Shown: positions 6,324 to 45,653 of the stretch, one piece after another
How positions within the stretch are numbered: position 1 is the first letter of the stretch
How the letters are laid out: each line of letters opens with the position of its first letter
Assembly (NCBI GenBank): GCA_004321885.1
Contig: SCQK01000002.1
Coordinates: forward strand, 1-52,343
DNA length: 52,343 nt
Direction: 5' to 3'
Source of the DNA: Patescibacteria group bacterium
GTDB lineage: Bacteria > Patescibacteriota > Patescibacteriia > Magasanikbacterales > GWA2-37-8
The notes under the pieces: model-generated
Told to the model about the DNA's origin: nothing
What the model saw: only the letters and a program-made list of their open reading frames with translations
Databases searched by the model: none
Program-made: the position numbers and the translations under genes

Positions 6324-6645
6324 CTTCAAATTCAGTCTGGAAAAAAGCGGCCGCTATGCCCACTGGCGCGTGCTTAATCTTATCATCGTCGGCCTGCTTC
6401 TGGGCGGCGCCATGTTTACCTTTTATTTCATCCAGCAAAACATCTTTTCTTCCATTGCCAATGCCAACGCTATCGTAGCCCTGCGCGCGAATGCGAGCGC
6501 CGACACGGTGAATTTACAGGCCTTCGCGGCGGCCAAAGATGCCATCGCTGAAAAAAAAATAAAAATAGAATTAAACACGGCCCTGCGCAATATTTTTTTC
6601 TATGCCGCGACTTCAACCAGAATCGCGAGCGGCACAAACCAGTGA
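6310..6645 (+). CDS. Small single-pass membrane protein of unknown function (possibly a pilus accessory protein)
   Basis: 111 aa ORF with one hydrophobic helix (LNLIIVGLLLGGAMFTFYFI). It is co-oriented with the pil operon and shows no recognisable domain. Confidence 0.4.
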   Translation: MHPINFKFSLEKSGRYAHWRVLNLIIVGLLLGGAMFTFYFIQQNIFSSIANANAIVALRANASADTVNLQAFAAAKDAIAEKKIKIELNTALRNIFFYAATSTRIASGTNQ

Positions 6646-7804
6646 ACAGAATAAATACTGGTTTGTCTTGGGCCGCGAACCGGAATTATCCGCGTCAGAA
6701 CTGGACGCGGTTCTTTGTTTGAACGGCCAATTTTCCATTAACCAAAACATCCTGATTGCGAATGCGGCTGTAAACGGCGAGCTGATAAACCGACTCGGCG
6801 GGACCATAAAAATCGGCCGGGAAATCGGAAGCGGTTTATCGGAAGAACAAATGATGGAGAAAATAATTGACGAACTAAAAACAATAGGCGGCAAAATCCA
6901 TTTTGGCTTGAGTTTTTACGGCCCTCCCCGGTTGCCGATGAAAACCTGGGGCCTACGAATCAAAAAAGAACTGACAAGCTCGGGCCTATCCGCGCGCTAT
7001 GTGGAAAACAAAACCCCGGTTTTGTCTTCGGTGACCGTGGCGAAAAATAATCTGCTTAAACGCGGGGCCGAATTTTTAATTTTTGGCGCGGGCGGTAAAT
7101 TTTCCCTTGCTAAAACCATCGCGGTCCAGCCGTTTGAAGAATTCAGCCGCCGCGATTATGGCCGCCCGGCACGCGACGACGTCAGCGGCATGCTGCCGCC
7201 GAAACTGGCCATGATGATGATAAATTTGACTGGCATCTCTCTCCCCTTGCTAAGGGGAGGGCTGGGGAGGGGTAAAATTTTGCTGGATCCTTTTTGCGGG
7301 TCGGGCACCATCCTGACCGAAGCCCTGCTTTTGGGATATGGCGACTTGGTTGGCAGTGATGTTTCCGCTAAAGCCGTGGCGGACACGTTAAAAAATATTG
7401 AATGGACGGCCAAAAATAAAAAGATAAACGTGTTTCAAAGCGACAGCGCGGACATCGGCAAACATCTCGCGCCCAACTCAATAGACGCCATTGTCACCGA
7501 ACCCTTTCTGGGCAAGCCATTGCGCGGCAATGAAAGCCGGGCCGATTTGGCCGGGCAGGCCGAAGAACTGCGACTTCTTTACGAAAAAGCCTTTCAACAA
7601 TTCCAAAAAATCATCAAACCGGGCGGCGTGGTGGTCTTCGCGAGCCCGAGATTTTTTTTCAAAAACGAAACAGTCAGGGTAAATTTTGAAACAAAAAAAT
7701 ACGGCTTTACGCCGGTTCCCTTTTTCAACAAACAAAACTTTCTTCTTTACCACCGGCCGGGCCAGCGCGTGGCGCGGGAAATCTGGCGGTTTGTTAAACG
7801 TTGA
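6602..7804 (+). CDS. THUMP-domain RNA methyltransferase (UPF0020, RlmL/Trm11-like class I SAM methyltransferase)
   Basis: 400 aa with a SAM motif LLDPFCGSGTILTEA and a catalytic TEPF (DPPY-like) motif. The N-terminal region is THUMP-like. Its start overlaps the upstream ORF by 44 nt and no alternative in-frame ATG is visible. Confidence 0.7.
   Translation: MPRLQPESRAAQTSEQNKYWFVLGREPELSASELDAVLCLNGQFSINQNILIANAAVNGELINRLGGTIKIGREIGSGLSEEQMMEKIIDELKTIGGKIHFGLSFYGPPRLPMKTWGLRIKKELTSSGLSARYVENKTPVLSSVTVAKNNLLKRGAEFLIFGAGGKFSLAKTIAVQPFEEFSRRDYGRPARDDVSGMLPPKLAMMMINLTGISLPLLRGGLGRGKILLDPFCGSGTILTEALLLGYGDLVGSDVSAKAVADTLKNIEWTAKNKKINVFQSDSADIGKHLAPNSIDAIVTEPFLGKPLRGNESRADLAGQAEELRLLYEKAFQQFQKIIKPGGVVVFASPRFFFKNETVRVNFETKKYGFTPVPFFNKQNFLLYHRPGQRVAREIWRFVKR
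7237..7276. repeat. Short palindromic element (CTCCCCTT-GCTA-AGGGGAG plus a GAGGGGTAAA tail) inserted in frame in the methyltransferase gene
   Basis: tctctccccttgctaaggggagggctggggaggggtaaa. It encodes ...SLPLLRGGLGRGK... directly before the LLDPFCGSGT motif, where homologues have a shorter loop. Related copies occur at 8212-8274 and 45172-45194. Confidence 0.6.
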
Positions 7805-21699: not shown

Positions 21700-22147
21700 G
21701 TTTGATGTCCCAGTTGTAATTAATGTCTTTGGTAGACGGGTCAATGCGAATTATTTCATCCTGGTCGTGCGGCTCGGTGGCGCAATTGGCGACGATGGCT
21801 TCTTCCGAACCGACGCCCTTAAAACCATTCACCACTCCGGCCGGCACCCGCACCAGGCAATAATTCTTGTCGCCCATAAATATCTCCTGTATCTCGCCCC
21901 TTGTTTCGGAATCAGGCCTTTGGTCTGCCAAAACCAGTTTGATATTGCCGCGGACAACCGCGTAATGCAAAGCCATTATTTTGTGCAAATGCCAGGCCTT
22001 TACGGCCCCGGGATAAACAGTGGAAAAATAAATTTCCCCGAATTTTTCAAATTCCGGGTCGTCGTTTCTTAGCATGTGCATCACCGAGCCCCTTTCATCG
22101 CAAATTTTACTTAGCGGTTTGATGATGACGCCTTTAATCATACACAA
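21692..22147 (-). CDS. dTDP-4-dehydrorhamnose 3,5-epimerase-like cupin (RmlC family)
   Basis: 151 aa cupin with an RmlC-like core (GEIYFSTVYPGAVKAWHLHK...). Confidence 0.65.
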   Translation of the reverse strand: MCMIKGVIIKPLSKICDERGSVMHMLRNDDPEFEKFGEIYFSTVYPGAVKAWHLHKIMALHYAVVRGNIKLVLADQRPDSETRGEIQEIFMGDKNYCLVRVPAGVVNGFKGVGSEEAIVANCATEPHDQDEIIRIDPSTKDINYNWDIKHG

Positions 22148-22164
22148 AATTAGTGAATAAAAGT

Positions 22165-23226
22165 TTACGTTTTTGGTCCGCGTTTTTTTATGATAAAATA
22201 ATTTTGTTTTAGCATCTCCAAAATTTTTATTTTTTTAAGTGGCCGGTATAGCTTGGCCATAAATCTTTTCACAGCCGTCCGCCTTCTCGCACGCCGGCCC
22301 GCCAGTCTTTCGTTTTTTTCCAGCTCCAAGGCCTTGGCGGGATTAATTGTCCTACGTTTGGCCGCGGGGAGCGGCTGGTCTATAATATTTCTTAGAAAAT
22401 CTTCAAAACCTTGTTTCACTTTTTCAAAATCAGCGCCCGGCGCGACAATGGGCTGATTAATTATTTCTAAATACAGGTCGTCATCGTTGTCTATTTCTTT
22501 AACGCGCGCCACCACCCGGTCAAAACTCTCATAATTATGACAACTGATAAAACGGCGGTCGTTAAACTCGCGGCCGATCTCGGGGTTGCCCCAATAAATC
22601 GGAATGGTTCTGGCCGCGATGGAGCTGGCTATTTTCTCGGTAGTGTAGCCCAAGCGGGAAGAATTTTCAAAAGCAATGGAAAATTTATGCTTGGACTCAA
22701 AATCCAATTTGCTTTCAATTATTCCGCCGACATTATTCAAATAACGGCCGCCGGCGCTTATTTTTTTATACTGGCTCAGCTTATCAAAAAAATTTTTGCG
22801 CCTTTCATCGGCCAAATAATTGGAATACACAAAACTGCAAAATTCGGTTTTTTGGGCCAAATCGGCCCTGGTAAACGGCTCTGGTTTGGTAAAATCCGGG
22901 CCAATGCGAGCCGCCTCATTCTTGTCGTAGAATACCATGACATGATAAAGCGGATAGCGGTAGTATCTGTCTCCAAAAATCATGTAATCATAGCCGACGG
23001 CGTAGTCGCACAAATTAAAATTCGGGCTCACATTTTCGCCGGTATAAAATATCCTGACGCAATTATACTTCAAATATTTGTAGGACGACTCATTGTAAAA
23101 TACGTAATCCGGCTTTTCGGAAATTTCAACGTCGTAATATTTTATCAGTATTTTGTATATAAAATTATCGCGAAAATCCTGTTCGCTGTCGTCGTAGCCG
23201 CAAATTTTAACGCGTATTTTTCTCAC
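22165..23226 (-). CDS. Glycosyltransferase family 10 (alpha-1,3/4-fucosyltransferase-like)
   Basis: 353 aa containing the GT10 signature KFSIAFENSSRLGYTTEKI (consensus YxFxLxFENSxxxxYxTEK) and a FutA-like N-terminal motif (IFYTGENVSPNFNLCDYAVGYD). Confidence 0.75.
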   Translation of the reverse strand: MRKIRVKICGYDDSEQDFRDNFIYKILIKYYDVEISEKPDYVFYNESSYKYLKYNCVRIFYTGENVSPNFNLCDYAVGYDYMIFGDRYYRYPLYHVMVFYDKNEAARIGPDFTKPEPFTRADLAQKTEFCSFVYSNYLADERRKNFFDKLSQYKKISAGGRYLNNVGGIIESKLDFESKHKFSIAFENSSRLGYTTEKIASSIAARTIPIYWGNPEIGREFNDRRFISCHNYESFDRVVARVKEIDNDDDLYLEIINQPIVAPGADFEKVKQGFEDFLRNIIDQPLPAAKRRTINPAKALELEKNERLAGRRARRRTAVKRFMAKLYRPLKKIKILEMLKQNYFIIKKRGPKT

Positions 23227-23233
23227 AAAATTG

Positions 23234-24169
23234 TCATTTAATAATGGCGATTATTTGACTCAAATACCGCGGGTCAACGCAATCATCCGGATTTCTTTCA
23301 TGAATCTCGTTAAAATATTTATACTTTACCTTTTCTTGTTTCTCGGCCTTTCTTAAAAACATTTCGTATTCCATGTCAAGATGGCCAATATCAATAACCC
23401 GGTATCCCAATAAAAATAAATCATACGCCAATACCTTGGCAGTCGGACCCAAGGACAACAAAATTAACTTGTCTTTGCCGATTTTTGCCGCTTCATTTTT
23501 AATCGCTTCGTACTTATCAAAGGCGTTTTCGGGCGGACACAGTATTCTGTGCAATGATTTAACGCGACTAAACATATCGTTTCCCACGCCCAGCCGGCTT
23601 TTTGCGCCCTCAATTAGCGCCACGTCCTTCCCTTCCCAAATGAAAAATAATTTTTGAAAAGTATTCTGACAGCCGGATTTATCCTTAAAAGCCAGGTAAA
23701 AACGGGTCATATTCATGTTGCCGTATAGACGGTCGTAGGACAACAAACTCTTCCAGACATGCCCATACCTATACAAATGATGCATACTAAACCAAAAAGC
23801 GTAATCTTCCAGTCCGTTCAATTTTTCCCACATGCCCGGAATACAAATTAACAACCCGTCCAAATTTGATTGCAAAATCTGCTCCAGTCTCGCGGCTAAT
23901 TGCGCGTCCTGCTTTTGAAACCCCAAATCAATGCCGTCTAACAACGATATTTCGCCGTCGCCGAAACGGATAATCGAAAGATTTTTTTCAATTATCAAAT
24001 CAATGGTTTCATTAACAGACAGCACTTTGGGCCGTTGGCGATTTGGTCTGAAATAAATATTAAAATAATACAACACAAAAGCAATGACCGGGCCGATTTT
24101 GTGCCGAATGGCCAAAGGCGTCCTTTGCCGTATTTTTTGAAGAATAGATTGAAGCAAGGATTTTTTCAC
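23234..24169 (-). CDS. Putative GT-D type glycosyltransferase (DUF1792-like)
   Basis: 311 aa with an N-terminal TM helix and a DxE-type motif (IRFGDGEISLL) resembling the metal site of DUF1792/GT-D enzymes. The assignment is weak. Confidence 0.35.
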   Translation of the reverse strand: MKKSLLQSILQKIRQRTPLAIRHKIGPVIAFVLYYFNIYFRPNRQRPKVLSVNETIDLIIEKNLSIIRFGDGEISLLDGIDLGFQKQDAQLAARLEQILQSNLDGLLICIPGMWEKLNGLEDYAFWFSMHHLYRYGHVWKSLLSYDRLYGNMNMTRFYLAFKDKSGCQNTFQKLFFIWEGKDVALIEGAKSRLGVGNDMFSRVKSLHRILCPPENAFDKYEAIKNEAAKIGKDKLILLSLGPTAKVLAYDLFLLGYRVIDIGHLDMEYEMFLRKAEKQEKVKYKYFNEIHERNPDDCVDPRYLSQIIAIIK

Positions 24170-24789
24170 ACTGTTTTCAATTTTAAGTAAGAATTATTCC
24201 CGTCCCAAAAAACCAGGCGATAGCCAAACTGTTTTAAGAATTTGTAATTGCCGCCCTCCAGGCAAATAACAGCCGCCTGATACCTGCTCCAGTCATTGCT
24301 TTTCAACACGGCCTCTTCAAAATTTTCCACGTCAATCGTCATGAAATCCACTGTCCTTAGATTATTTTCCGCAAAAATTTCCCTGAGCGGCTTTAATTTT
24401 ATTTTTCTGCTTTTCGTAATCCCCCGCGCCGCGGCCAATTCTTTCACGCAGGTGGCGCCTGATGATTCGTTTTCATCGCCAAAATACTCAACCTCGCCCT
24501 CGCCCACGGCGCAGTTTAAATTAATATCTTCCAGTCTCTTTTCACAAAATAATTTATAACCGATAGGGCTTGGCTCAATATTTATCCCCCGCCAGCCTCT
24601 TTCATAAAATAATTTGGTGTTGCTGATTTTATCCGGATGATAAGCCCCGATATCTATGTAAGTTCCTTTTTCTTTATAGCCGGTCAGCCAGTCAATAACA
24701 TTATCCTCGTTTAATTGGGAATAAGAAAATTTGTTTTTGAATCCGAAAAGCCTCACTAAAATCCGGCCCAAATAATATTTTAGATTCAT
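24166..24789 (-). CDS. FkbM-family SAM-dependent methyltransferase (probable sugar O-methyltransferase)
   Basis: 207 aa with an FkbM-type motif (GTYIDIGAYHPD) and a class I MT fold. Confidence 0.65.
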   Translation of the reverse strand: MNLKYYLGRILVRLFGFKNKFSYSQLNEDNVIDWLTGYKEKGTYIDIGAYHPDKISNTKLFYERGWRGINIEPSPIGYKLFCEKRLEDINLNCAVGEGEVEYFGDENESSGATCVKELAAARGITKSRKIKLKPLREIFAENNLRTVDFMTIDVENFEEAVLKSNDWSRYQAAVICLEGGNYKFLKQFGYRLVFWDGNNSYLKLKTV

Positions 24790-25619
24790 ACAATATCTTT
24801 CAACATCCGTTCCTTTGACGCGCTGTAATCTTTTTCCATTGATTCCAAAGTCAAACCGTTTTCCAATTCATACAGCCGCATATAAACCATAAACCTATAG
24901 AAAGCATGTAATATCGCCACATTAAACCCCTTGACGCCGCTTCTAAAAAAACGCTTATAAAAAAGGAAAAAATACCTACACATCGCGCCCAGCATCAAAA
25001 AAACGCTAAACTTCTTTTTTTTCTCGAATTTATACCATGCCTCGCTTTCAGCGCAATAAAGATGCCTTGCGATATATTTACGCATATCATACAAACTATA
25101 ATGATGGATGGCGTATTTTTCTTCCATGGGCAAGGTCAGTATTTCATCTGCTGTGCCGGTAAACCGGCCAAACCCATGCAAATAATTGCCGGAAAAATCG
25201 ATGCTGTCCTTTTTAAAAAATCTGGGGTTATAGCCTTTATGGGCCGGGTATTTTGTTTCGCCCCACAAATAAGTAAACATCGGAACTCTCGCGTATTTAT
25301 ATTTATCCTGCAGGGAAATCTCGCGCATTTTCTCCAGTAGTTCAACCGGCAGCATATAATCCGCGCACCCCCAAAAAATCCAACTGCCGTCCTTGACATA
25401 TTGTCTGACAAATTGATACATTCGCTCATCTTCCGCCTCTATTATTTCGTGCGGTCTGGTGATAAATTTTGCTCCCAGCCCCTCGACAATCTCTTGGGTT
25501 CTGTCGTCGCTAGCATCGTCAAAAATTAGCACTGCGCCGTATTTGGTGAGATTACGGACAACATAGCCAATTCTTTTCTCCTCATTTTTGGTAAAAATTA
25601 CGAAAGCAATGTTTCTCAT
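24786..25619 (-). CDS. Glycosyltransferase family 2
   Basis: 277 aa with a GT-A N-terminus (IAFVIFTKNEEKRI...LIFDDASDDRT). Confidence 0.7.
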   Translation of the reverse strand: MRNIAFVIFTKNEEKRIGYVVRNLTKYGAVLIFDDASDDRTQEIVEGLGAKFITRPHEIIEAEDERMYQFVRQYVKDGSWIFWGCADYMLPVELLEKMREISLQDKYKYARVPMFTYLWGETKYPAHKGYNPRFFKKDSIDFSGNYLHGFGRFTGTADEILTLPMEEKYAIHHYSLYDMRKYIARHLYCAESEAWYKFEKKKKFSVFLMLGAMCRYFFLFYKRFFRSGVKGFNVAILHAFYRFMVYMRLYELENGLTLESMEKDYSASKERMLKDIV

Positions 25620-25645
25620 ATTGTAATGGAATGAAAAAAATAATT

Positions 25646-26539
25646 TTAAGCCGAAAAAAAATCCACAGTTTTCTGCAGGCCGTCGCGCCAGTTAATGACC
25701 GCCCGCCAATTAATCTTCTCATTAGCCGACAAATCGGCCCGGGAATCCATTATCTCATTTCCGCGATAATTCAATCTGCCGAATGCCAGCGCAGAACCGC
25801 TTTTGGTGATTCCTTTCAAATAGGCGACAGCCTCTTTGATGGAAACAGAACGGCCGTGGCCAATGCCAAACTCTTGATAATTTTCTAAAACCGGATAACT
25901 CTTAAAAACCTGAACAAACGCCCGGGCCACGTCATCCACGAATATAAAATCGCGTTTCTGGTCTCCGTTGGTCAACTCTATATTTTTAGCATTGGAGAGC
26001 AATTCTTTAATAATGGCGGGAATAAATTTTTTGGCGCTGTCGCCCGGACCGTACATTTGTTCTATTCTTAAATTAAAAAATTTGATTTTTATCTGCGGCG
26101 CGGCGTCTCTAACTATGGCCAAAAAATCCTTTTTGGTTTTAACATAAAAATGCTCATGGCTGGCAAAGCTCATTTTATCGTTAAAAAAAGTATCGGCGTT
26201 AATGAAACATTGGACTCCCGCCTGCTCACCCGCAAGCAAAAGTTGAAGGGGCAAAAGCAGATTAACTCCGGCGATTTCGTGCCAGGGTTCATCGTTTCGG
26301 CCGTAGCAAGTGGCCGTATGGATTATAGCGCTGATTTTATACTTAAAAAAACACTCTTTCAAATCATCTTCGCCTAAAAAAATTTTCACTAACCGCGGAT
26401 GATTCGCGAATGGTTTTAGGCGCTCGCCGGCAGAATTCCGGCGCACCAAAACAACCGCGCGACAGCCTTCGGCCAAAAACAATGCTGTCACTTTTGCTCC
26501 TAAAAAACCAGTGGCGCCGGTTATCAAAACTGTTTCCAT
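25646..26539 (-). CDS. NAD(P)-dependent nucleotide-sugar reductase/epimerase (SDR; CDP-abequose/paratose synthase-like size)
   Basis: 297 aa with a Rossmann motif (ITGATGFLGAKV) and an SDR core. Its size and context suggest a 4-ketoreductase acting on a CDP-4-keto-3,6-dideoxyhexose. Confidence 0.55.
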   Translation of the reverse strand: METVLITGATGFLGAKVTALFLAEGCRAVVLVRRNSAGERLKPFANHPRLVKIFLGEDDLKECFFKYKISAIIHTATCYGRNDEPWHEIAGVNLLLPLQLLLAGEQAGVQCFINADTFFNDKMSFASHEHFYVKTKKDFLAIVRDAAPQIKIKFFNLRIEQMYGPGDSAKKFIPAIIKELLSNAKNIELTNGDQKRDFIFVDDVARAFVQVFKSYPVLENYQEFGIGHGRSVSIKEAVAYLKGITKSGSALAFGRLNYRGNEIMDSRADLSANEKINWRAVINWRDGLQKTVDFFSA

Positions 26540-26540
26540 A

Positions 26541-27431
26541 TCATTTTTTTCTCCAGCCCATTTTTTTAAGAATCTTTTTTATCAATTCCTTGAAAGACAC
26601 CCAGCAGCCGCGAATTAAAAAGTAGGCATAAACTTTAGAGCGCGAAATCGGCAAGCCATATAAATTTGCTATCCAGAACACGGCTCGGGCCGTGCCCACG
26701 CTACGTTTATAATTATTCTCAAGCCCCTGGTACGAATCCCAGCGCAAATTATCATTGCGCGTTTTTATGAATGGCTCGGCCAACAAGGCAAACCGGCTGT
26801 TCTTAAAAGCCTGCAACAAGACAAAAAAATGGATGGTGCTGGTGCCGATATACTCATTTTTTGTTTCAAAATCCAGCCATGTTTTTCTAAGAAATAACTG
26901 CGTGGACATGCCGCCGAAAAAACCGACTAAATCAAGATAATTTTTAATTGACTTTACAAAATCGGCTAAGGTATCGTAAACCGCATCCTTTTCCAATTTT
27001 TGATTTGGCTGCGACAGGACCGGTTCTTTAAGCCAGTGGTCATAACCCCAGCAATTAAGCATAAAATAGGGGGCGCCGATGGTTTTAATTTTTTCAAGCA
27101 ATAACGCAAAACTGCCCGGGAAAAAACCATCATCATCGCCGATAGTCAAACAATACTGGCCCGAGCTTTGTTCAATGGCATTTAACAAATTCCGGTCAAA
27201 GCCCAGATTTTCTTGATTGCGCAAGTATCTGATATTGTCAAAATTTTCCTGGTAAGTTTTGACGACTGCCATGGTATTATCTGCACTGGCATTGTCGGAA
27301 ATAACAACTTCAACTTGCTCGCAAACTTCCTTATTATCAAATTGGCAAACAATACTGTTCAAAAGGTCTTTCAAACAGTCCGCTCTGTTGTATGTTGGAA
27401 CGCAAACGCTGATTATTTTATTGCCGGACAT
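26541..27431 (-). CDS. Glycosyltransferase family 2
   Basis: 296 aa with a GT-A N-terminus (ISVCVPTYNRADCL...VVISDNASADNT). Confidence 0.7.
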   Translation of the reverse strand: MSGNKIISVCVPTYNRADCLKDLLNSIVCQFDNKEVCEQVEVVISDNASADNTMAVVKTYQENFDNIRYLRNQENLGFDRNLLNAIEQSSGQYCLTIGDDDGFFPGSFALLLEKIKTIGAPYFMLNCWGYDHWLKEPVLSQPNQKLEKDAVYDTLADFVKSIKNYLDLVGFFGGMSTQLFLRKTWLDFETKNEYIGTSTIHFFVLLQAFKNSRFALLAEPFIKTRNDNLRWDSYQGLENNYKRSVGTARAVFWIANLYGLPISRSKVYAYFLIRGCWVSFKELIKKILKKMGWRKK

Positions 27432-28702
27432 AACTGAGGCTCTTTAATTCTTTTGTAATAGAGATACCAAAGCAGGACAACGATAATAAACATCTCCAAA
27501 GATTTGAAAGCAAAAAGCGTCATCATGGGCTGACTGCCGAAGATGGGAAAGAGCAGCCACTGGGATATGGACAAATAAAACAGGGCCTGTAAAAGAAAAT
27601 CATAAGCCGTAGACAAAGCCGGACGCATGTTCCAATAAGCGGTGAACATAAATAAATAATAAAGCCCATTATGCAGACCAGAAGCGGTGGGAAAAAATGA
27701 AACAAAAAACATTAAAGTCCCGAACTCCAGCAGAATTAAACTATTGTCGGCATCCGCTATTTTTTTTATCCTATTCATTCTATAGGTCAAGTAATAAAAT
27801 GCCGCGGAAATAATTAAAATAAGCGTCAGCGCAATAGTCTGCGCTTGGGAAAGGCTTAGTAAGTGATAGGTAAAACGATTATAAAACAGGCCCCCCAAAC
27901 TAGCGCTCCACCCGCCGGCATTGATTGAATCAGCGCCGAAACTGAACGTGGCGGCCATAAAATCCGTCAGCATGTCAAAACCAAACCACAACGTGAAAAA
28001 AGCCAGAAAAACCAGGGTGGAGTAAAAAACCGTTTTATTCTTGATGAAAAAATACGGCAGAAAAACTATCGGCATTAACTTGAACATGATGGCGGCGGCC
28101 AAAAGCAAGCCGGTAATTTTATATTTCTTTTTCAAATAGAACAGCAAACACAAGGAAAGCAAAAATATGACCGGCACATTTGTCTGCCCGTGGTCAAGAT
28201 GAAGAAAAAAGAACGGCGAAAATAAAAAAACCAAAGCGGCAATGATAAAATACCACATTTTCTTGCGCATGAAACTGCTTAAAATATAAATGGACCACAT
28301 AAACAGCGCTATCGTAAACATGCTATAGACAATCAGGGAAACATAAAAAGGAAGCAGGCTGAAAGGGATGAAAAAATAGGCCATGAGCGGGGGATAAACA
28401 AACTGAACAATAAAATGGGGCAGTGAAAGTTCGTTGGGATTGGGCTCGTTGGGCGAGGCGAAATAAAAATTCTTGCCCTGGCTCGCTTTCAAGCCAGCGT
28501 AATAGAAGAAATGATAATCTGAACCGCCGAGGCCGCGGCTAACGCTCGGCGAGAAAAGTTGGCGGTTGTCCAGTTGCAGGGGATACCAGCCGAAAACAGC
28601 CGTAATCACGAATAAAAAAACCAGCCCGCCCAAATAAAGGGCGAAAAACGGCGACCGTAGCCAGGTCTCTTTTGGCGATTCTTGATTTTCGTTAAGCATC
28701 AT
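27413..28702 (-). CDS. Polytopic membrane protein, putative GT-C-like glycosyltransferase (DUF2029/GT87-like) or O-antigen polymerase-like
   Basis: 429 aa with 10-12 TM helices and a conserved loop (SDYHFFYYAG). It lies downstream of gtrA/gtrB in the position of a GtrC-type transferase. Confidence 0.4.
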   Translation of the reverse strand: MMLNENQESPKETWLRSPFFALYLGGLVFLFVITAVFGWYPLQLDNRQLFSPSVSRGLGGSDYHFFYYAGLKASQGKNFYFASPNEPNPNELSLPHFIVQFVYPPLMAYFFIPFSLLPFYVSLIVYSMFTIALFMWSIYILSSFMRKKMWYFIIAALVFLFSPFFFLHLDHGQTNVPVIFLLSLCLLFYLKKKYKITGLLLAAAIMFKLMPIVFLPYFFIKNKTVFYSTLVFLAFFTLWFGFDMLTDFMAATFSFGADSINAGGWSASLGGLFYNRFTYHLLSLSQAQTIALTLILIISAAFYYLTYRMNRIKKIADADNSLILLEFGTLMFFVSFFPTASGLHNGLYYLFMFTAYWNMRPALSTAYDFLLQALFYLSISQWLLFPIFGSQPMMTLFAFKSLEMFIIVVLLWYLYYKRIKEPQLCPAIK

Positions 28703-30009
28703 ACGTAACCCCTTAAAAATTCATTAAAACATTCCACCACATACTCCAGCATCTCTTTGTTCAATCCCGGATAACAACCCACCCAAAAAGTGTTGTTCAT
28801 GATGAAATCAGTATTTTTTAAATCGCCGACAACGCGGTAATTGATTTTATTGTCTATAAAATATGGCTGCTTCAATAGATTGCCGGCGAACAAATAACGG
28901 GTGGCAATATTATATTCCTGCAAAAACCGTACCAGCTGGTCGCGATTAAACGGCGCGTCTTCTTTGACAGTCAGCAAAAAGCCAAACCAGCTTGGCTCGG
29001 CCTTTTCTTCCCACACAGGCAAAACAAAATATTTTTCGTATTTTTTCAGGCCATCATATAAAATCTGAAAATTTTCCCGGCGCCTCTGTATAAAATCGTC
29101 AAGCTTCTCCAACTGGGCCACGCCAATGGCGGCTTGCAGGTCAGTCGGCTTCAAGTTATACCCGATTTCCGAATAAATATACTTGTGGTCATAGCCAAAC
29201 GGCAACTGGCCCAATTGCCAGCCAAATCTCATGCCGCAGGTGTTATCATGCCCGGTTTTACAGCAGCAATCCCTGCCCCAGTCTCTGATAGACCTGATAA
29301 TTTTGTTGAGCAGAGGGTCGTTCGTAAACACGGCCCCGCCTTCACCCATAGTGATATGGTGCGCCGGGTAAAAACTCAAGGTCGCCAGATGTCCAAAAGT
29401 GCCGGTTCGCTGGCCGTTAAAAGTTGACCCGAGGGCGTCGCAGTTGTCTTCTATCAGCCACAAATCTTTTTCTTTGCATAACTTTACGACAGCGTCAAGA
29501 GCAAACGGGTTGCCCAGAGTATGGGCAATCATAATGGCCCTGGTTTTTGGGCCGAGGGCTTTTTTAATTTCTTCAATGCTCGCGTTATAAGTTCCCAATT
29601 CCACGTCAACAAAAACCGGAACCAAGCTATTTTGAATTATCGGATTGACAGTGCTGGGGAAACCCGCGGCCACTGTAATAACCTCATCGCCGTCTTTTAA
29701 TTTCTTATTCCCTAATCTGGGAGACCGCAAAGCCGCGACCGCCAAGAGGTTGGCCGACGACCCGGAGTTGGTAATATTCACATACGGCACTCCCAGCCAG
29801 CGGCCGAGCCTGGCTTCAAATAAGTCGGAAAATCTTCCCTCGGTCCACCAGCCATCTAGAACCGCTTCGGTCGCCAGCAAAATTTCTTTTTCGTCAAAAA
29901 CTTTTCCAGAAATGGGAATCGATGTTTCTCCAGGAATAAATTTTTTAAACGGAAATTTTTCCCTATACTCTTGAATCAGCCTACTCTTCAATTCTTCGTT
30001 CATAAACAA
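28699..30009 (-). CDS. ddhC: CDP-6-deoxy-D-xylo-4-hexulose 3-dehydrase (E1; PMP-dependent DegT-fold dehydrase with [2Fe-2S] site)
   Basis: 436 aa DegT/DnrJ/EryC1 fold in which the Schiff-base Lys is replaced by His (FYPAHHITMGEGGAVFT). A Cys cluster (RDWGRDCCCKTGHDNTC) follows. These features and the length (about 437 aa) are diagnostic of E1/RfbH rather than an aminotransferase. Confidence 0.85.
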   Translation of the reverse strand: MFMNEELKSRLIQEYREKFPFKKFIPGETSIPISGKVFDEKEILLATEAVLDGWWTEGRFSDLFEARLGRWLGVPYVNITNSGSSANLLAVAALRSPRLGNKKLKDGDEVITVAAGFPSTVNPIIQNSLVPVFVDVELGTYNASIEEIKKALGPKTRAIMIAHTLGNPFALDAVVKLCKEKDLWLIEDNCDALGSTFNGQRTGTFGHLATLSFYPAHHITMGEGGAVFTNDPLLNKIIRSIRDWGRDCCCKTGHDNTCGMRFGWQLGQLPFGYDHKYIYSEIGYNLKPTDLQAAIGVAQLEKLDDFIQRRRENFQILYDGLKKYEKYFVLPVWEEKAEPSWFGFLLTVKEDAPFNRDQLVRFLQEYNIATRYLFAGNLLKQPYFIDNKINYRVVGDLKNTDFIMNNTFWVGCYPGLNKEMLEYVVECFNEFLRGYV

Positions 30010-30370
30010 AACGTTTGTTTAGATAAAAAGCTATGAAAGCCATGGGCAGAATCAGAATTGCTCCGGAAACATAATTGCTTACGCCTTTTAAGTTAAGAAA
30101 ACAAAGAAAAACAAGATTGATTAAATAGGTAAAAGCGTAAACACCAACAAACTTAAAAAGTAAATCGCGACGGTAAGAGGCGAAGACCAGCCGGCCGACG
30201 GTCTGAAAATTGAACAAAACCCCCAAAATAGTGGCCAGGAGCGCGGCCAAAGCATAATGCAGGCCGAAAAAAATCATAAGAGCAAAAACTCCATAGCCAA
30301 AAATTGTGTTTATTCCGCCGACCGCTAAAAAACGGATGAATTTATTCTCAAAAATTCGCCTCAAATTCAT
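29981..30370 (-). CDS. gtrA: GtrA-family small membrane protein (lipid-linked sugar flippase subunit)
   Basis: 129 aa with 4 TM helices and a GtrA signature (FIRFLAVGGINTIFGYGVFALM). Confidence 0.75.
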   Translation of the reverse strand: MNLRRIFENKFIRFLAVGGINTIFGYGVFALMIFFGLHYALAALLATILGVLFNFQTVGRLVFASYRRDLLFKFVGVYAFTYLINLVFLCFLNLKGVSNYVSGAILILPMAFIAFYLNKRFVYERRIEE

Positions 30371-31305
30371 ACATTAAAATTTATTCTTTCCTTTTCAATC
30401 ACCAGCGGCCGGTTTTTTACCTGGGTGTAAATGGCCGCGATATATTCCCCCAAAATGCCGACGAAAAAAAGCTGCATTGAGCCGAGAAAAAAGAACCCAA
30501 TGATAAGCGGCGCCAATCCCAACTGGAATCTCTGCCAATAAATTAACTTATAAATTAAATAGGCGAGGCCGAGCGCGAAACTTAGGGCCGATAGGACAAA
30601 GCCAATAAAGCTGGCCAACCGCAAAGGCAATTTAGAGTGATTGACAAAACCCAGCATGGCCACGCCGTACATGGTATACCAATTCCTGCCTTTTGATTTT
30701 CCTTTCTTTCTTTCATTCTGCGTGTATTTGAGCTCGGCATGCTGGAAGCCAACCTCGTTAATCATGCCGCGAAAATAAGGATCCGGATCGTCAAATTTTC
30801 TGATGGCTTCAATAAACTCCCGGTCATAAAGCCCGAAGCCGTGAAAATTTCTAATCTGTTCAATATCCGCGATTTTCTTGATTAAAAAATAATACAGCTT
30901 GCGGATATTAAACATTATGCCGCCCTCCTCGCTTTTATTTTTTATGCCGACAACGACCTTGTAGCCCTCTTCCCATTTTTTGATAAAATCCTTCATCAGG
31001 GCAGGCGGGTCCTGCAAATCGGAGACCAGCGATATAACCGCGTCACCCCTGGCCTGCAGCAAAGCGTGATGCAGGGAAGAGGCATGAAAATTGCGCGAGT
31101 TAACTATAATTTTTACATGCTTGTCTGCTTGCGCGATGCCTTTTAGTATGTTCACGGTCTCATCCGTGGAAGCGTTATCAATAAAAAGATGCTCGTAGTC
31201 GTACTGGGGCAGCTGGGCGAAAATTTCTCTAACTTGCAGATAGACATCCTTAATATTTTCTTCTTCGTTGTACGCGGGGGTGACCACGCTGATTAATTTT
31301 GCCAT
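30367..31305 (-). CDS. gtrB: GtrB/ArnC-type polyprenyl-phosphate glycosyltransferase (GT2 with C-terminal TM helices)
   Basis: 312 aa with a GT-A domain (ISVVTPAYNEEENI...DNASTDET) and two C-terminal TM helices. It lies upstream of gtrA. Confidence 0.8.
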   Translation of the reverse strand: MAKLISVVTPAYNEEENIKDVYLQVREIFAQLPQYDYEHLFIDNASTDETVNILKGIAQADKHVKIIVNSRNFHASSLHHALLQARGDAVISLVSDLQDPPALMKDFIKKWEEGYKVVVGIKNKSEEGGIMFNIRKLYYFLIKKIADIEQIRNFHGFGLYDREFIEAIRKFDDPDPYFRGMINEVGFQHAELKYTQNERKKGKSKGRNWYTMYGVAMLGFVNHSKLPLRLASFIGFVLSALSFALGLAYLIYKLIYWQRFQLGLAPLIIGFFFLGSMQLFFVGILGEYIAAIYTQVKNRPLVIEKERINFNV

Positions 31306-31313
31306 AAAATTTT

Positions 31314-32360
31314 TCAGATAAAACTTTTTATCGTCCGGTAAAAACCGTCGCGCACGCTAAACCGGCATTGATAGCCAAGCTTTTGAATTTTTGCAATTGA
31401 CAGTGTGGGTCTGACTTTATTCTTGTTTTCCAAATAGTCTTTGCCGGCCGCGCGCTTTTCGTAAATCACCTTTAATTTTTTTTCCGGCCACATCGCCACG
31501 AGCAAATTCGCCAATTCGCCTATGGATATTCGCCCGTTTTCATTGCCCACATTATAACTTTCACCCCGCTTGCCGTTTAATAGCACGTTAAAAAACCCGG
31601 CGGTAGCGTCGGCAATATAACAGAAAGTGCGCACCGGCGAGCCGTCGCTTTTAATCACTATGTCTTTATTACGAACGACATTTGAAACAAACTCGGCAAA
31701 AACCCTTTTATCATTTTCCAAGTCTATTGTGGGGCCGTAGGTGTGTTCGGGCCTGACGGCCACGGCCGGCACCTGGTACTGGTGATGCCAGCACTGGCAC
31801 ATATTTTCACCCATGCGCTTGCTTTCGCCATAACAGCTTCTGATGTCCATCTGATTCAAATACCCGCTGTCTTCTTCGCTGATGAGCGGCTTGTCCATGG
31901 TCCCGCAAACTTCCCCGCTGCTAAAAAATAAAAATCCCTTGGATTTCTTGGCTCTGGCCAATTCCAACAAATTTTTGGTGCCAAAAACATTCGGGGCTAT
32001 CACTCCAACCGGGTCAATGCCGTAAAACTGGGAACTGGCCGGACTGGCGGCGTGGATGATATAATCAATGCTTCCTTCAAAATCCAATTTTTCGGTGATG
32101 TCGTCGCATCTTATATAAAAAAACGGCGAATCCAAAAAATCGCCAAATCTCTTTTTGGCTTTTTTCAAATTTCGGCAGAGGGCAATAATTTTTAAATTCA
32201 AGCCGGGAATTTTTTCGCTTAAAAACGCCAACATGAAAACCATATAAGACGCCAGCATCCCATTCGCTCCGGTAACCAAAACCGTGGCGTTTTTAAACTT
32301 CTCCCAATCTAAACCGCTTTGGTAAATAATTTCTAAATCTTCTTTAATGATATCATTCAT
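31314..32360 (-). CDS. NAD-dependent nucleotide-sugar epimerase/dehydratase (SDR)
   Basis: 348 aa with a Rossmann fold (VLVTGANGMLASYM) and a YxxxK site (YGESK). Confidence 0.6.
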   Translation of the reverse strand: MNDIIKEDLEIIYQSGLDWEKFKNATVLVTGANGMLASYMVFMLAFLSEKIPGLNLKIIALCRNLKKAKKRFGDFLDSPFFYIRCDDITEKLDFEGSIDYIIHAASPASSQFYGIDPVGVIAPNVFGTKNLLELARAKKSKGFLFFSSGEVCGTMDKPLISEEDSGYLNQMDIRSCYGESKRMGENMCQCWHHQYQVPAVAVRPEHTYGPTIDLENDKRVFAEFVSNVVRNKDIVIKSDGSPVRTFCYIADATAGFFNVLLNGKRGESYNVGNENGRISIGELANLLVAMWPEKKLKVIYEKRAAGKDYLENKNKVRPTLSIAKIQKLGYQCRFSVRDGFYRTIKSFI

Positions 32361-32361
32361 G

Positions 32362-33522
32362 TTAATATATTTTGACTATTTCATTTTTTAGCTTCAATTC
32401 ATCTTTTATTTGGCGTGCCACCTCTTCCTGATAAGAAAAAGTTGAGATTAAAATGGGGGCGTTTTCTTTGATTTCTCGCGGAGACTTGATTTCAACCCCG
32501 TTGATTTTCTTTCCGTGATATTTGACGTTTGAATCCACGAAATACAATACCTTGGCCAGGTCCAGGCCGGCGCCCACCAGGCGCTGGGTGTGCGTGCCCA
32601 CGCCCCAAATGATTATTTTTTCGTGCTTGCCCAAAACTTCGCTCAAAAACTTGTTCACCTCGATGTCCAGTTGCGCGCATTTTGATATGTAGTCGCCGAG
32701 TTTCTTCTCGGTAATATCATCTTTGACAATTTCAGACTTAAGTTGAGGGGAAAACTTTGCTAAAACAAAAATGTCCGGGTCTATCGTCTGATTGACCGTG
32801 TTTTCATTTTTTTGCATTTCCACGATTTCAAAACCAAACTTCCCCAACAAATTTTTTAAGGACACATCGCTGAAATAATCAATATGCTCTATGCTGAACT
32901 GCTGAAACGGGGTAAAAATATACGAATCAAAACGCGTCGCGTCCGGCACCTCCACAAACAACAGACCGCCTTCGTTTAATAATGACTGAATTTTATCCAC
33001 GGAGCCGCTAAAATCCACCAGGTGCTCCAATACAGCTGACAAAATTATTACGTCAAATTTGTTCTCCGCGCTAAAATTGGAAATTGTGTCAGCGACGGCG
33101 TCAATGCCGTAGAGTTCCTTTACTGTTTTGACGCAAGTCGGCGAAGGGTCAATGCCCAAAAGATTGACGTAGCCTTTTTCCTTGAGCATATTGAGCAGAC
33201 AGCCAGTGGAGCATCCAATGTCCACTATTTTGGCGCGCTTGTCTTTGAGATGGGGAACCAAAAAATCAATAATCTTTTTAAAATATTTTTGGTAATCCTC
33301 CGAAACAACGCCATCCTTATAATTAAACTCCCACTTGGACATTATTTCATAGTATTTATTAAATTCCTCTTGTCCGGGAATATTATCAGCAAAAACAAAA
33401 CCGCATTTTTGGCACACCACAACATCATAGCCGTCCATTATGGCAATGGCTTTATTGCCGAAATTCTGTCTAAAAAATTTTTTCTTTCCCTCGGATAAAC
33501 AAATCGGACAAGGCCTAAGCAT
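32362..33522 (-). CDS. NDP-hexose C-methyltransferase-like (TcaB9/TylC3 architecture: Zn-ribbon plus SAM-MT plus C-terminal domain)
   Basis: 386 aa with an N-terminal Cys4 zinc ribbon (CPICLS...CQKCGFVF), a class I SAM motif (IVDIGCSTGCLL) and a C-terminal C-methyltransferase-like domain. Confidence 0.55.
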   Translation of the reverse strand: MLRPCPICLSEGKKKFFRQNFGNKAIAIMDGYDVVVCQKCGFVFADNIPGQEEFNKYYEIMSKWEFNYKDGVVSEDYQKYFKKIIDFLVPHLKDKRAKIVDIGCSTGCLLNMLKEKGYVNLLGIDPSPTCVKTVKELYGIDAVADTISNFSAENKFDVIILSAVLEHLVDFSGSVDKIQSLLNEGGLLFVEVPDATRFDSYIFTPFQQFSIEHIDYFSDVSLKNLLGKFGFEIVEMQKNENTVNQTIDPDIFVLAKFSPQLKSEIVKDDITEKKLGDYISKCAQLDIEVNKFLSEVLGKHEKIIIWGVGTHTQRLVGAGLDLAKVLYFVDSNVKYHGKKINGVEIKSPREIKENAPILISTFSYQEEVARQIKDELKLKNEIVKIY

Positions 33523-33524
33523 AT

Positions 33525-34544
33525 TTAAGATTGATAATGTTGTTTTAACCTTTCAGCAGCGCTGTTTAAGTTATCCTCCGGGAACAATCTGTATTTAACA
33601 ATATTGCAGTCCGCGCATGGCCCGCCCAAGATTTTGGCTCCTTCCAGCATTGTCCTTCTAAATTTTTGAAAGACAGGACCATTCCAGATTTCGGTTACTG
33701 ATTCTTTGTTGCAATCGCCCATAATGCCCGGATAATCCCAAGAATAGCAAGGAACAACCTTTCCGTCCGGATTGATTTGCATGTGAAAAAAAGGCTGGGG
33801 GCAAATTTTAACTTCCGAAACAGGCAGGCCAAACTGGGTTAGGTTCATTTCTTTGGCGCCGGGCATTTCTTCGTAATTCACACCGGCGTGGATGGGCACG
33901 GTATGCTCAACGGCTATAGAATCGCAAATGTCTCCAAAAATATCATAAAATTTTTCTTCGTCTTCTTTGTTGTCCAAAGCCGTGTCCACGATTTTGAAAT
34001 AGGCGTGCGCTTGGCCCTTGTGCTCGTAAAAATATCGTAAATTTCCCACGAATTTTTCAAAATCCAAATTAGCTTGGGAAATTTCTTGATATTTTTCCGC
34101 CGTAGTGCCCTGCAAAGAAACCACCAGCCGGTTCAACCCGGCAACGAGCAAGGCGTCGCTCATTTGCGGGGTAAGCAAAGAGGCGTTGGTTAAAATTTCA
34201 ATAACATTCGCTATCTTTTTTTCGGCCGTGTAGCGCACCATTTCCACAATGTCTTTATGCAAAAGCGGCTCGCCGATGCCGACAAAACGGATAACCTTGA
34301 TTTTGCCGGGGAATTTGGCCATGTCATCCACGCATTTTTTGTACAAACTTAAATCCATCATTATTTTATCGGAAATAAACCCGCGCTTGGAAGGCTCCAC
34401 TGAAAAAATACAATAACAACACTTAAAAACACAGGCGTAAATGGGGAAAATTTGTACAGCAAAAGGCGTGTCCAAAGGAAGCGCTTCCGAGAGTGGAGTT
34501 CTTTTGCCTCCCGGGGCTTGTCCACCTATATTTTTTGCTTTCAT
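33525..34544 (-). CDS. Radical SAM enzyme with C-terminal SPASM/twitch domain
   Basis: The CX3CX2C motif (CVFKCCYC) and a C-terminal Cys-rich auxiliary cluster region (PCYSW...GGPCADC) are present. The start is trimmed to MKAKNIGG (ATG at 34544), which overlaps the upstream gene stop as ATGA. Confidence 0.7.
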   Translation of the reverse strand: MKAKNIGGQAPGGKRTPLSEALPLDTPFAVQIFPIYACVFKCCYCIFSVEPSKRGFISDKIMMDLSLYKKCVDDMAKFPGKIKVIRFVGIGEPLLHKDIVEMVRYTAEKKIANVIEILTNASLLTPQMSDALLVAGLNRLVVSLQGTTAEKYQEISQANLDFEKFVGNLRYFYEHKGQAHAYFKIVDTALDNKEDEEKFYDIFGDICDSIAVEHTVPIHAGVNYEEMPGAKEMNLTQFGLPVSEVKICPQPFFHMQINPDGKVVPCYSWDYPGIMGDCNKESVTEIWNGPVFQKFRRTMLEGAKILGGPCADCNIVKYRLFPEDNLNSAAERLKQHYQS

Positions 34545-43455: not shown

Positions 43456-43490
43456 AAAAAAACTTCCACTGATTAAGGTGGAAGTTTTTT
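43456..43490. terminator. Bidirectional rho-independent terminator (A-run, stem AACTTCCAC/GTGGAAGTT, loop TGATTAAG, T-run)
   Basis: A perfect 9-bp stem flanked by A7 and T6. It separates the MBL gene from the GC-rich cassette. Confidence 0.75.
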
Positions 43491-44344: not shown

Positions 44345-44995
44345 TCAGAGCTTGACCCCATTTTCCAGGTACACCAGCTCGATGGACTGGCTGTCCGATG
44401 TTTGACAGGCTCGTAAGGCCAAGGGAGCGTAATAAAGACGGTGGTTTTCCTGCATATTGGCAGGCAAGCGATTGGCTGAGAACCATCGTCTGGTTTCGTC
44501 TTCCTTCGGCTCCTCATCGAACCATACCAGGTTGATCCACGAGATGCTCGGGATTCCGTATCCGTGATTGCCCCGGGCTATATCCCAGACCTCGGCGATG
44601 CGGACGAAATGAATGCCTTTCGTGCCGTTGAACTCGAGTCGATCAGCCGTTTCCTGTTCCGTCTCCCACGGACGCAAGTACGAACCGATGAAGTGCCACT
44701 CGTTTTGGAAGCATTCTTTTGCCGAGCGGAGACGCATGAAGAACTCAAACTCGCCCGATCGATTGCGCCGCATCGGAATCGCTTCGAACGCGATATTATT
44801 CGATTTCCGGGCGATGGAGAGCCAGAACTCGTGCCCAAACGCCCCCTTGGTTGGCACGATATCAATCAGTTGGGCCACCGTTTGTTTGAACAGCTGGGGG
44901 TCAGCTTGCCACACCTCCTCGAGCAAGCGCTTGGCGACCAGCGCCTTCAATTTCAGAGCATCACTCTGAACCACTACAATCTCTTTTCCGCTCAT
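44345..44995 (-). CDS. Divergent Gmm-like Nudix-fold protein with N-terminal extension
   Basis: 216 aa. The segment EWHFIGSYLRPWETEQETADRLEFNGTKGI aligns with the modified Nudix boxes of the two Gmm-like proteins in this window (GWHFPGGLLRFRESFDERIQAVAWKELGI). It is GC-rich like the adjacent SDR. Confidence 0.4.
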   Translation of the reverse strand: MSGKEIVVVQSDALKLKALVAKRLLEEVWQADPQLFKQTVAQLIDIVPTKGAFGHEFWLSIARKSNNIAFEAIPMRRNRSGEFEFFMRLRSAKECFQNEWHFIGSYLRPWETEQETADRLEFNGTKGIHFVRIAEVWDIARGNHGYGIPSISWINLVWFDEEPKEDETRRWFSANRLPANMQENHRLYYAPLALRACQTSDSQSIELVYLENGVKL

Positions 44996-45137
44996 CGTTT
45001 CACCCCGATGTTCGTTGTGTTGTAAATGATTTTGGTCAAAGCCAAAATCATCTCACCCTAACATACACCGATAAAAAAATCAAGGCCTTGAGCCCTGATT
45101 TTGCGATTTTGACTGAATTCTGTTTTACCCCCTCCCT

Positions 45138-45168
45138 GTCACCACACCAAAATTTTTGGTGTGGTGAC
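45138..45168. repeat. Perfect 31-nt palindrome GTCACCACACCAAAA-T-TTTTGGTGTGGTGAC
   Basis: Seen directly in the sequence, in the intergenic region between the two Nudix genes. Confidence 0.6.
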
Positions 45169-45171
45169 AAG

Positions 45172-45194
45172 CCTCCCCCTTGTCAAGGGGGAGG
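45172..45194. repeat. Intergenic copy of the CTCCCCCTT-GTCA-AGGGGGAG palindromic element
   Basis: cctcccccttgtcaagggggagg. It is related to the in-frame elements at 7237 and 8212. Confidence 0.6.
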
Positions 45195-45197
45195 AAT

Positions 45198-45653
45198 TCA
45201 TCCCATCACCCTCTGCCAAAATCCCCTGTGCCCGTCAATAATATTCTTGGGCATGGTTTTGAAAAATCTGCCTTTTTTCGGCTTCATAATAGTCCGGCAC
45301 TCAAACACCAGCGACACTGTGTGCCCGCGCGAACCCTGGCTGCAATCATTGGCAAACAAAAATTTGGAATCGCTGACATTAATCCCCAGCTCTTTCCAGG
45401 CCACGGCCTGGATGCGTTCGTCAAAGCTCTCGCGAAAGCGCAGAAGACCGCCCGGGAAATGCCAGCCGCGCCACCACTGGTCGTCGCGCCAGGTGAGCAA
45501 CACGCCCCGCGGACTCTTTATCACCAGCTCTACGGCCGCAAAAGTTACTACGCCGAGCAGAGCTTCAAAAACCGGCTGTGGCAGGCCCTCGTGAGGGTTG
45601 TCTATTTTTTTCAGCAGGACGCAAAGCTGTTTTAATTCTTTCGCGTTTAACAT
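45198..45653 (-). CDS. Nudix hydrolase, GDP-mannose mannosyl hydrolase (Gmm)-like, second copy
   Basis: 151 aa with motifs VLLTWRD and GWHFPGGLLRFRESFDERIQAVAWKELG, paralogous to 14423..14875. Confidence 0.6.
   Translation of the reverse strand: MLNAKELKQLCVLLKKIDNPHEGLPQPVFEALLGVVTFAAVELVIKSPRGVLLTWRDDQWWRGWHFPGGLLRFRESFDERIQAVAWKELGINVSDSKFLFANDCSQGSRGHTVSLVFECRTIMKPKKGRFFKTMPKNIIDGHRGFWQRVMG

Follow-up and report, generated by a model that had tools for sequence, protein, structure and literature searches.

A candidate triplex motif with a small palindrome in its second loop, downstream of a NUDIX hydrolase gene in a Patescibacteria contig

The closest described counterparts of the element treated here are the repeats that have borne, in turn, the names BoxC, PIT elements (Hoyne, Edwards, Viari and Maher 2000), and TM or TMECO, the last in the ITxF database (Holder et al. 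2015, PMC4666352). Our subject is a 68-nt stretch of contig SCQK01000002.1 from a Patescibacteria group bacterium, of which positions 1 to 52,343 were analyzed and are called the window throughout; the stretch lies in the spacer between a NUDIX hydrolase gene and a second, Nudix-like open reading frame (ORF) and contains two adjoining palindromes, here designated A and B. Like repeats of the BoxC/PIT/TM kind, the stretch is built from a pyrimidine (Y) arm, a short loop (loop 1), a purine (R) arm, a further loop (loop 2), and a mirrored G-rich third strand (class II purine motif), with G/C-rich stems of 9 to 10 nt and a 3-nt loop 1, and like them it belongs to a dispersed, multicopy repeat found across many bacterial genomes, mostly intergenic and without gene-strand bias. 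Unlike them, it has a loop 2 of 36 nt that is itself a perfect hairpin, it is found in a Patescibacteria host, and it has a sister copy in frame within a gene. The strict TMECO/BoxC pattern is CCCTCNCCC N3-6 GGGNGAGGG N3 GGGNGAGGG (PMC4666352); the window arms (CCTCCCCCTT, AAGGGGGAGG, and GGAGGGGGT) have the same design but depart from that pattern. We consider it quite probable that the 68-nt stretch is one composite, in which a mini-palindrome of a second dispersed family, palindrome B, occupies loop 2 of a G/C-rich class II triplex motif. Four parts of this reading are shown directly: the anatomy, the assignment of A and B to their families, the fact that the B family is mobile, and the fact that second loops closed by a hairpin recur elsewhere.

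The Rickettsia palindromic elements (RPE), which Ogata et al. reportedly described in 2000, are said to be frame-preserving repeats of approximately 100 to 150 bp that lie in protein genes, where they add short peptides to housekeeping proteins, and also between genes. Copies of the B family, and likewise the triplex motif at 7241-7274 of the window, lie in genes with the frame intact, as RPE do; unlike RPE, B consists of 29 nt plus a 4-nt duplication, has other hosts and sequences, and is intergenic in its window copy. The SDR elements of heterocystous cyanobacteria, as summarized in PMC3116915 from Elhai et al. (2008), are hairpin-forming mobile repeats of 21 to 27 nt that are often nested in others, and an RNA intermediate has reportedly been proposed for them. 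Palindrome B is likewise very small, hairpin forming, and nested in another repeat, although its sequences and hosts differ, and the 4-nt target duplication of its family suggests that it moves as DNA, by cut-and-paste or by copy-in. The REP, BIME, and REPIN sequences of proteobacteria are extragenic palindromes in 3' spacers whose stable hairpins can protect upstream mRNA (PMC3116915), and REP loops are referred to there as known insertion sequence targets (its references 41 and 42). The window composite resembles REP in consisting of stable hairpins in a 3' untranslated spacer, whereas B, unlike REP, also inserts within genes and has a sequence that is conserved across many species and is not species specific. 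The composite is best explained as an unusual variant and not as a new category, a known kind of repeat joined to a mini-element that is probably undescribed.

Anatomy of the composite

As stated in a preliminary description of the window, twin perfect palindromes lie between the two genes. Both strands of the spacer, when folded, give the two hairpins. Palindrome B, taken there as 31 nt, extends by one further pair to a 33-nt perfect palindrome with 16-nt arms and a central T, and 2 bases (AG) separate it from palindrome A. In gene sense, on the minus strand, hairpin A (45194-45172) reads CCTCCCCCTTG-A-CAAGGGGGAGG and palindrome B (45169-45137) reads TGTCACCACACCAAAA-A-TTTTGGTGTGGTGACA; the spacer runs from the stop codon through ATT, hairpin A, CT, palindrome B, GGGAGGGGGT (45136-45127), and 24 nt to hairpins C and D (Table 1). 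B is the longest perfect hairpin of the 52-kb window, and A is within the top five. Neither pattern arose in 100 dinucleotide-preserving shuffles with 3 mismatches allowed, and the window holds no other copy of A or B at up to 3 mismatches. Folded as RNA, the 215-nt spacer segment reaches -94.5 kcal/mol on the minus strand (z = -9.0) and a z of -7.5 on the plus strand. As DNA, an 81-nt stretch reaches -28.4 kcal/mol (z = -6.7), with individual hairpin stabilities of -10.5 kcal/mol for A and -16.6 kcal/mol for B; both hairpins are more stable as RNA.

The stretch as first delimited, from 45127, already included ACCCCCTCCC (45127-45136) without comment, and this sequence belongs to element A as its third part. 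GGAGGGGGTA itself (45135-45126) is the mirror image, not the complement, of the R arm, and set against the reversed R arm (GGAGGGGGAA) it gives 10 of 10 allowed triads (G.G-C, A.A-T, and T.A-T only). The Y and R arms form 10 perfect pairs, within the 6- to 15-nt stem criterion, and loop 1, at 3 nt, is inside the published limits. The third strand is unpaired in all Watson-Crick folds, and the triplex-motif finder, run on 50 shuffled versions of the window, returned no motif. By its sequence, palindrome A together with the third strand is a class II intrastrand triplex motif of the BoxC/PIT/TM kind.

Loop 2 of this motif consists of palindrome B with the flanking CT (45171-45170) and G (45136), and it closes on itself as a 16-bp hairpin with its two ends side by side. 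With such an insert, the R arm and the third strand stay next to each other and the triplex design would survive: in the proposed arrangement, the usual 3-nt loop 2 would have been replaced by an inserted 33-nt palindrome that closes on itself and leaves the three-strand geometry intact.

A palindromic or chimeric join made during assembly could also place such sequences side by side, and the Logan contigs of SRR8426592 do break inside B, with an overlap of only 12 nt. Palindrome A and one arm of B are on one of these contigs and most of B and the third strand are on the other, so that each side was obtained on its own, in the sequence that the window shows. Across B, the third strand and the purine arm agree in every triad, a match that a chimera would not produce and which argues that the join is real. 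Triplex motifs with a hairpin-closed loop 2 are, moreover, present in approximately 20 unrelated assemblies, some of them long-read, and we regard an assembly artifact as extremely improbable. The Logan break falls at the exact center of B, one contig ending just before the center base; it could reflect A/T heterogeneity of the center base (palindrome flipping) or a drop in coverage at the hairpin.

Table 1. Positions of the composite, its parts, and other features of the window
Feature	Coordinates	Strand	Basis or remark
Palindrome A, CCTCCCCCTTGTCAAGGGGGAGG	45172-45194		11-nt arms, central T
Y arm CCTCCCCCTT, gene-sense left half of palindrome A	45185-45194	-	Sequence, motif finder, DNA/RNA folds
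Loop 1, GAC	45182-45184	-	Sequence, motif finder
R arm AAGGGGGAGG, Watson-Crick partner of Y arm	45172-45181	-	Sequence, motif finder, DNA fold
Third (reverse-Hoogsteen, RH) strand, G-GGAGGGGGTA	45126-45136	-	Motif finder, folds, flank conserved elsewhere
Palindrome B, TGTCA-CCACACCAAAA-N-TTTTGGTGTGG-TGACA	45137-45169	.	Perfect; longest in window
Palindrome B, 31-nt form, GTCACCACACCAAAATTTTTGGTGTGGTGAC	45138-45168		Perfect
Second triplex motif, CTCCCCTT-GCT-AAGGGGAG-GGCTGGG-GAGGGGTA	7241-7274	+	Motif finder
Hairpin C, terminator-like, AAAAUCAGGGCU-CAA-GGCCUUGAUUUU then UUUAU	45073-45102	-	Minimum free energy (MFE) fold, sequence reading
Hairpin D, ATGATTTTGG-loop-CCAAAATCAT, 10-bp perfect stem	45026-45051	.	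Outside composite
Hairpin AAAAAACTTCCAC-loop-GTGGAAGTTTTTT, A6/T6 flanked, between convergent genes	43457-43490		
NUDIX hydrolase gene, 151 aa	45198-45653	-	Pfam PF00293; NCBI name NUDIX hydrolase
216-aa ORF, degenerate Nudix-like paralogue	44345-44995	-	Homologue synteny

Two dispersed repeat families, one nested in the other

The suggestion in the preliminary description that the palindromes are a target or footprint of a palindromic-element family is borne out, with two families in place of one: A is a member of the triplex-motif family, and B, which lies within loop 2 of A, is a member of a second dispersed family. The 21-mer core of family A, CTCCCCCTTGNCAAGGGGGAG, was found in at least 120 genome stretches when one genome per species was scanned, and the window itself holds a second, divergent motif. 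Several metagenome-assembled genomes (MAGs) contain multiple copies, and the hosts comprise Bacteroidota, Cellvibrio, Poribacteria, Actinomycetota, Chloroflexota, Planctomycetota, Cyanobacteria, Patescibacteria, and others. In 109 of 131 copies among the matches listed, a flank rich in either G or C lies no more than 16 nt from the hairpin. In nearly every copy elsewhere this conserved flank is (G)GAGGGGGT, located 3 to 5 nt 3' of the hairpin, or its complement 5' of it, and opposite an A-T pair the third strand varies as A or T (GAGGGGGT or GTGGGGGT), following the triplex rules.

Stem and third strand were compared in 115 distinct oriented copies beyond the window, again among the matches listed. 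The number of extra Watson-Crick pairs and the number of extra mirrored third-strand bases agree in most of them, at (0,0) in 57 copies, (1,1) in 38, (2,2) in 10, and (3,3) in 2, with 8 copies discordant; once these bases are counted in, 78 of the 115 have a loop 2 of exactly 3 nt. Such matched lengths amount to a covariation-type argument for triplex design. The BoxC/PIT-type motif reaches, with near-invariant sequence, well past the proteobacteria and cyanobacteria and into the ultra-small genomes of Patescibacteria, in which spare DNA is scarce and yet the motif is present, even in frame inside genes.

No bias of the triplex motif toward one gene strand was significant (21 sense and 13 antisense), and copies of both families are inside ORFs as often as between genes. 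For the triplex motif, no direct repeat indicative of a target site duplication exceeded permutation at any offset. Viral contigs were found to contain neither full palindrome nor the B core, and the triplex-motif core occurs in only 2 of them, so no phage link is apparent. Rfam returned nothing at or near the site (E values up to 10), and 12 other triplex-motif loci matched no Rfam family either. In four Planctomycetota MAG loci and one Nitrospinota locus, triplex motifs occur as inverted pairs 50 to 120 nt apart with mutually complementary outer third strands, giving units like miniature inverted-repeat transposable elements (MITEs) with terminal inverted repeats of approximately 32 nt. Eight cyanobacterial loci have two adjacent motif units in opposite orientation that adjoin a conserved stretch (…CTACGGTGTACACACAAGT…), which suggests that in cyanobacteria the triplex motif belongs to a larger repeat.

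The second triplex motif of the window is in frame within a 400-aa methyltransferase ORF (6602-7804, plus strand; TIGR01177/Trm14-like), where it encodes the 9 residues LPLLRGGLG directly before the S-adenosylmethionine (SAM)-binding motif LLDPFCGSGT. In an alignment of the 60 best representative homologues, LPLLRGGLG is missing from almost all. One of the intergenic palindromes had been described as a copy of this in-frame element; the two do share the triplex-motif family, but their sequences are different, with no copy at up to 3 mismatches. Like B, triplex motifs can remain within coding sequences with the frame intact. One methyltransferase homologue has a different insert of 11 residues (RGVGAIHELPL) in the same loop, which may be another small in-frame element at the same permissive site.

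The 23-nt core of palindrome B, CCACACCAAAA-N-TTTTGGTGTGG, which is matched exactly in the window at 45142-45164, is present in at least 120 contigs of the JGI metagenomes scanned, many of which are from groundwater and sediment, and the metagenomes that hold the core are rich in Patescibacteria. From 103 distinct copies among the matches listed, the family consensus reads CCC-core-GGG; this palindrome spans 29 nt, and its center base is free. Identical 4-nt direct repeats, mostly TNNA, flank 51 of these 103 copies (permutation mean, 14; maximum, 26 in 2,000), inverted flanks are found in only 5, and variants in the outer arms are usually compensated on the opposite arm. The consensus contains no stop codon in any of its six frames, and because 29 nt and the 4-nt duplication add up to 33 nt, each B insertion would add 11 codons with the frame kept. 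Stop-free stretches of at least 150 codons hold 59 of the listed copies, and the encoded peptides are [NYH]PHTKxFGVGV, PPHQ[KN]FWCGG, and TPTPKxLVWG, mostly of the form xPHTKxFGVGV.

The in-frame hosts of B are PNPase, MurB, DprA, SecD, DinB-like, and AAA ATPase sequences of Patescibacteria. In the PNPase of Candidatus Giovannonibacteria, two proteins carry the 11-residue insert and 38 others, one of them 90% identical, lack it, and the DNA of the filled and the empty site differs by exactly 33 nt, with TAAA duplicated. In the MurB of Parcubacteria, the insert is again present in two proteins and is absent from homologues with 92 to 93% identity and from all of the remaining ones. By these comparisons, B-type elements are recently mobile in Patescibacteria. 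The family may remodel surface loops of essential proteins, and it would provide a tractable marker of recent insertions and strain divergence in uncultured lineages. Among the fetched loci we found only further degenerate copies, and neither a longer, autonomous element bounded by B arms nor solitary half-sites beside a transposase; a transposase gene between CCCCCACACCAAAA inverted repeats, if found, would be the mobilizing enzyme of B. In the searchable literature, no published description of B-type, palindromic, or MITE-type elements in Patescibacteria was found, which is weak negative evidence, and a literature search by sequence strings returned no relevant paper.

The distribution of the core also bears on the idea that a dimeric DNA-binding regulator of the downstream Nudix-like gene uses B as its operator. 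A perfect 16+16 palindrome, intergenic and upstream of a gene, with arms that covary across family members, is in keeping with that idea. However, B is upstream of the terminator-like hairpin C, the next start codon is 140 nt away, its core is found inside the unrelated housekeeping genes named above, and its intragenic copies show target duplications and presence/absence polymorphism, which is the behavior of an insertion element. We judge an operator function to be highly improbable and regard B as a small repeat of the insertion type.

The nesting of a hairpin within loop 2 recurs elsewhere. Approximately 20 of the listed family A copies have a long loop 2 of 11 to 43 nt, about one in six copies is hairpin closed, and further examples are found among 24 triplex motifs on B-bearing contigs. 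In 19 of 20 cases from other genomes, the long loop 2 is an end-closed hairpin that folds far better than shuffles; several of these hairpins are closed by (T)GTC...GAC(A), like that of the window, and one Ignavibacteriales copy has a 13-pair nested hairpin. Closure of loop 2 could reflect selection for the three-strand geometry, and its recurrence offers a cheap comparative test for such selection.

We tentatively propose, as a possibility about which some doubt is in order, that B is an undescribed 29-nt transposable palindrome of Patescibacteria and that triplex motifs tolerate a long loop 2 only if it is an end-closed hairpin. If this is true, B would be the Candidate Phyla Radiation counterpart of RPE, near the lower size limit of mobile DNA, and the restriction on loop 2 would be comparative evidence of a selected three-strand geometry, which the BoxC/PIT experiments did not attain. 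The B family and the structured-loop triplex variant seem to merit a dedicated survey.

Several points weigh against the composite reading or narrow it. At 36 nt, loop 2 of the window motif is outside the published limits, which are given in PMC4666352 as 1 to 6 nt in ITxF and 0 to 10 nt in Hoyne et al., so that membership in the triplex kind relies on allowing for a self-closed insert. The isolated E. coli strand forms a stable triplex in vitro, but none was detectable in duplex DNA or in vivo (PMC4666352); for the window motif, the triplex fold is proposed by analogy, and what the folding programs return is the Watson-Crick fold with the third strand left unpaired. Closure of loop 2 could equally reflect merely that the things which insert are palindromes. 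The termini of the window copy of B are TCA/TGA, still complementary but not CCC/GGG, in a family with C at position 1 in 91 and at position 3 in 80 of the 103 listed copies. Its flanks on the minus strand, CTTG and CAGG, agree only in the outer C and G and form no clean direct repeat. With such atypical termini and flanks, a simple recent insertion of a canonical B at this site is not demonstrated; we infer the insertion from family membership and position. No empty site was found for the window locus, the closest Nudix homologue being 75% identical with an unrelated spacer. In addition, copy counts within the source genome cover this contig alone, and ORFs in the other loci were called by a crude longest-ORF greedy method.

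Terminator and junction readings of the spacer

The preliminary description also offered that A and B together act as a terminator or insulator, that is, as a factor-independent signal that ends the Nudix transcript and shields the downstream gene. Palindrome A begins 3 nt beyond the stop codon of the NUDIX gene (TGA, 45200-45198), both hairpins are very stable, and the 202-nt spacer is among the longest in a densely packed contig. Like intrinsic terminators, the composite presents a G/C-rich hairpin right after a stop codon; unlike them, it lacks a U-tract behind either hairpin. The minus-strand bases after A are CUUGUCAC and those after B are GGGAGGGGGU; the plus strand is likewise free of T runs at these positions, and the consensus scan made no call for A or B. 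Approximately 25 nt downstream of the composite on the gene strand lies hairpin C, which does have a U7 tail. Both families are found equally inside ORFs and between genes, and family A has no strand bias. Earlier experiments on BoxC/PIT elements, as summarized in PMC4666352, gave no promoter or terminator activity. Terminator or insulator function of A and B is thus unlikely.

Hairpin C, whose stem has 12 pairs in the MFE fold and which stands between a preceding A-tract and the U7 tail, is likely the real 3' end signal of the Nudix transcript, as judged from its fold and from reading the sequence; the scan made no call for it. It shares its A-tract/stem/T-tract style with the hairpin at 43457-43490, which looks like a bidirectional intrinsic terminator and illustrates the form that terminators take in this genome.

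We infer that insertion brought the composite to this site as selfish or neutral repeat DNA and that it is not a dedicated signal. It lies in the 3' untranslated spacer of the Nudix gene, upstream of hairpin C. At the DNA level, by analogy with the E. coli motif, hairpin or triplex folds might form when the G-rich strand is single stranded during replication or transcription and might stall polymerases and make the locus unstable. On the plus strand, the cumulative GC skew stays negative along the whole contig, and the minus strand carries most of the genes, so that the G-rich strand would probably be exposed as lagging-strand template. At the mRNA level, two very stable 3' hairpins could slow 3'-exonucleolytic decay, as REP hairpins do; a purine-motif triplex is reported not to form in RNA (PMC4666352).

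A recombination junction, att-like or attC-like, joining a foreign cassette to the resident Nudix gene was the remaining proposal. The window does contain a polysaccharide-type cluster of variable GC content, with 39 to 43% GC at 22 to 34 kb, and triplex motifs are associated with locally rearranged loci in E. coli (PMC4666352). However, GC content is approximately 54% on either side of the spacer, and in a related Patescibacteria contig the Nudix gene is likewise followed by a 187-aa homologue of the 216-aa ORF (33% identity; E = 8e-26), the gene order being kept across a 143-nt spacer of unrelated sequence that lacks palindromes A and B. Both window palindromes are perfect, and no integrase or recombinase was found among the scanned neighboring genes. 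A junction is therefore very unlikely, and the stretch, read as a composite of two repeats, should be annotated neither as a terminator nor as an island boundary. CRISPR, attC, and protelomerase-type sites were considered and rejected, as there is no array, there are no bulged bases, and there is no linked enzyme gene among the scanned neighbors. The block of 39 to 43% GC (22000-34000, against 47 to 55% elsewhere) is inside a long run of minus-strand genes; located 11 kb from the palindromes, it may be the unusual cassette meant in the preliminary description.

Neighboring genes and restriction sites

Both flanking genes had been called Gmm-like Nudix genes. The 151-aa protein is a NUDIX protein (PF00293), whereas the 216-aa ORF is only weakly Nudix-like and has no Pfam or NCBIfam match. 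Its ATG is preceded by GGGGTGA, which resembles a ribosome-binding site. Hairpin D starts 31 nt upstream of the start of this ORF, has TTGACC in its loop region, and could be an operator or a leader structure.

The hexamer GAATTC is scarce in the contig, with 8 sites against approximately 22 in shuffles. Two of these sites, at 45115-45120 and 45194-45199, bracket the composite, and another (7139-7144) is approximately 100 nt from the in-frame triplex motif. The bracketing pair could be due to chance, to a 6-bp duplication around the whole composite, or to restriction site avoidance; for two of 8 sites to lie 80 nt apart, the probability by chance is roughly 1 in 10.

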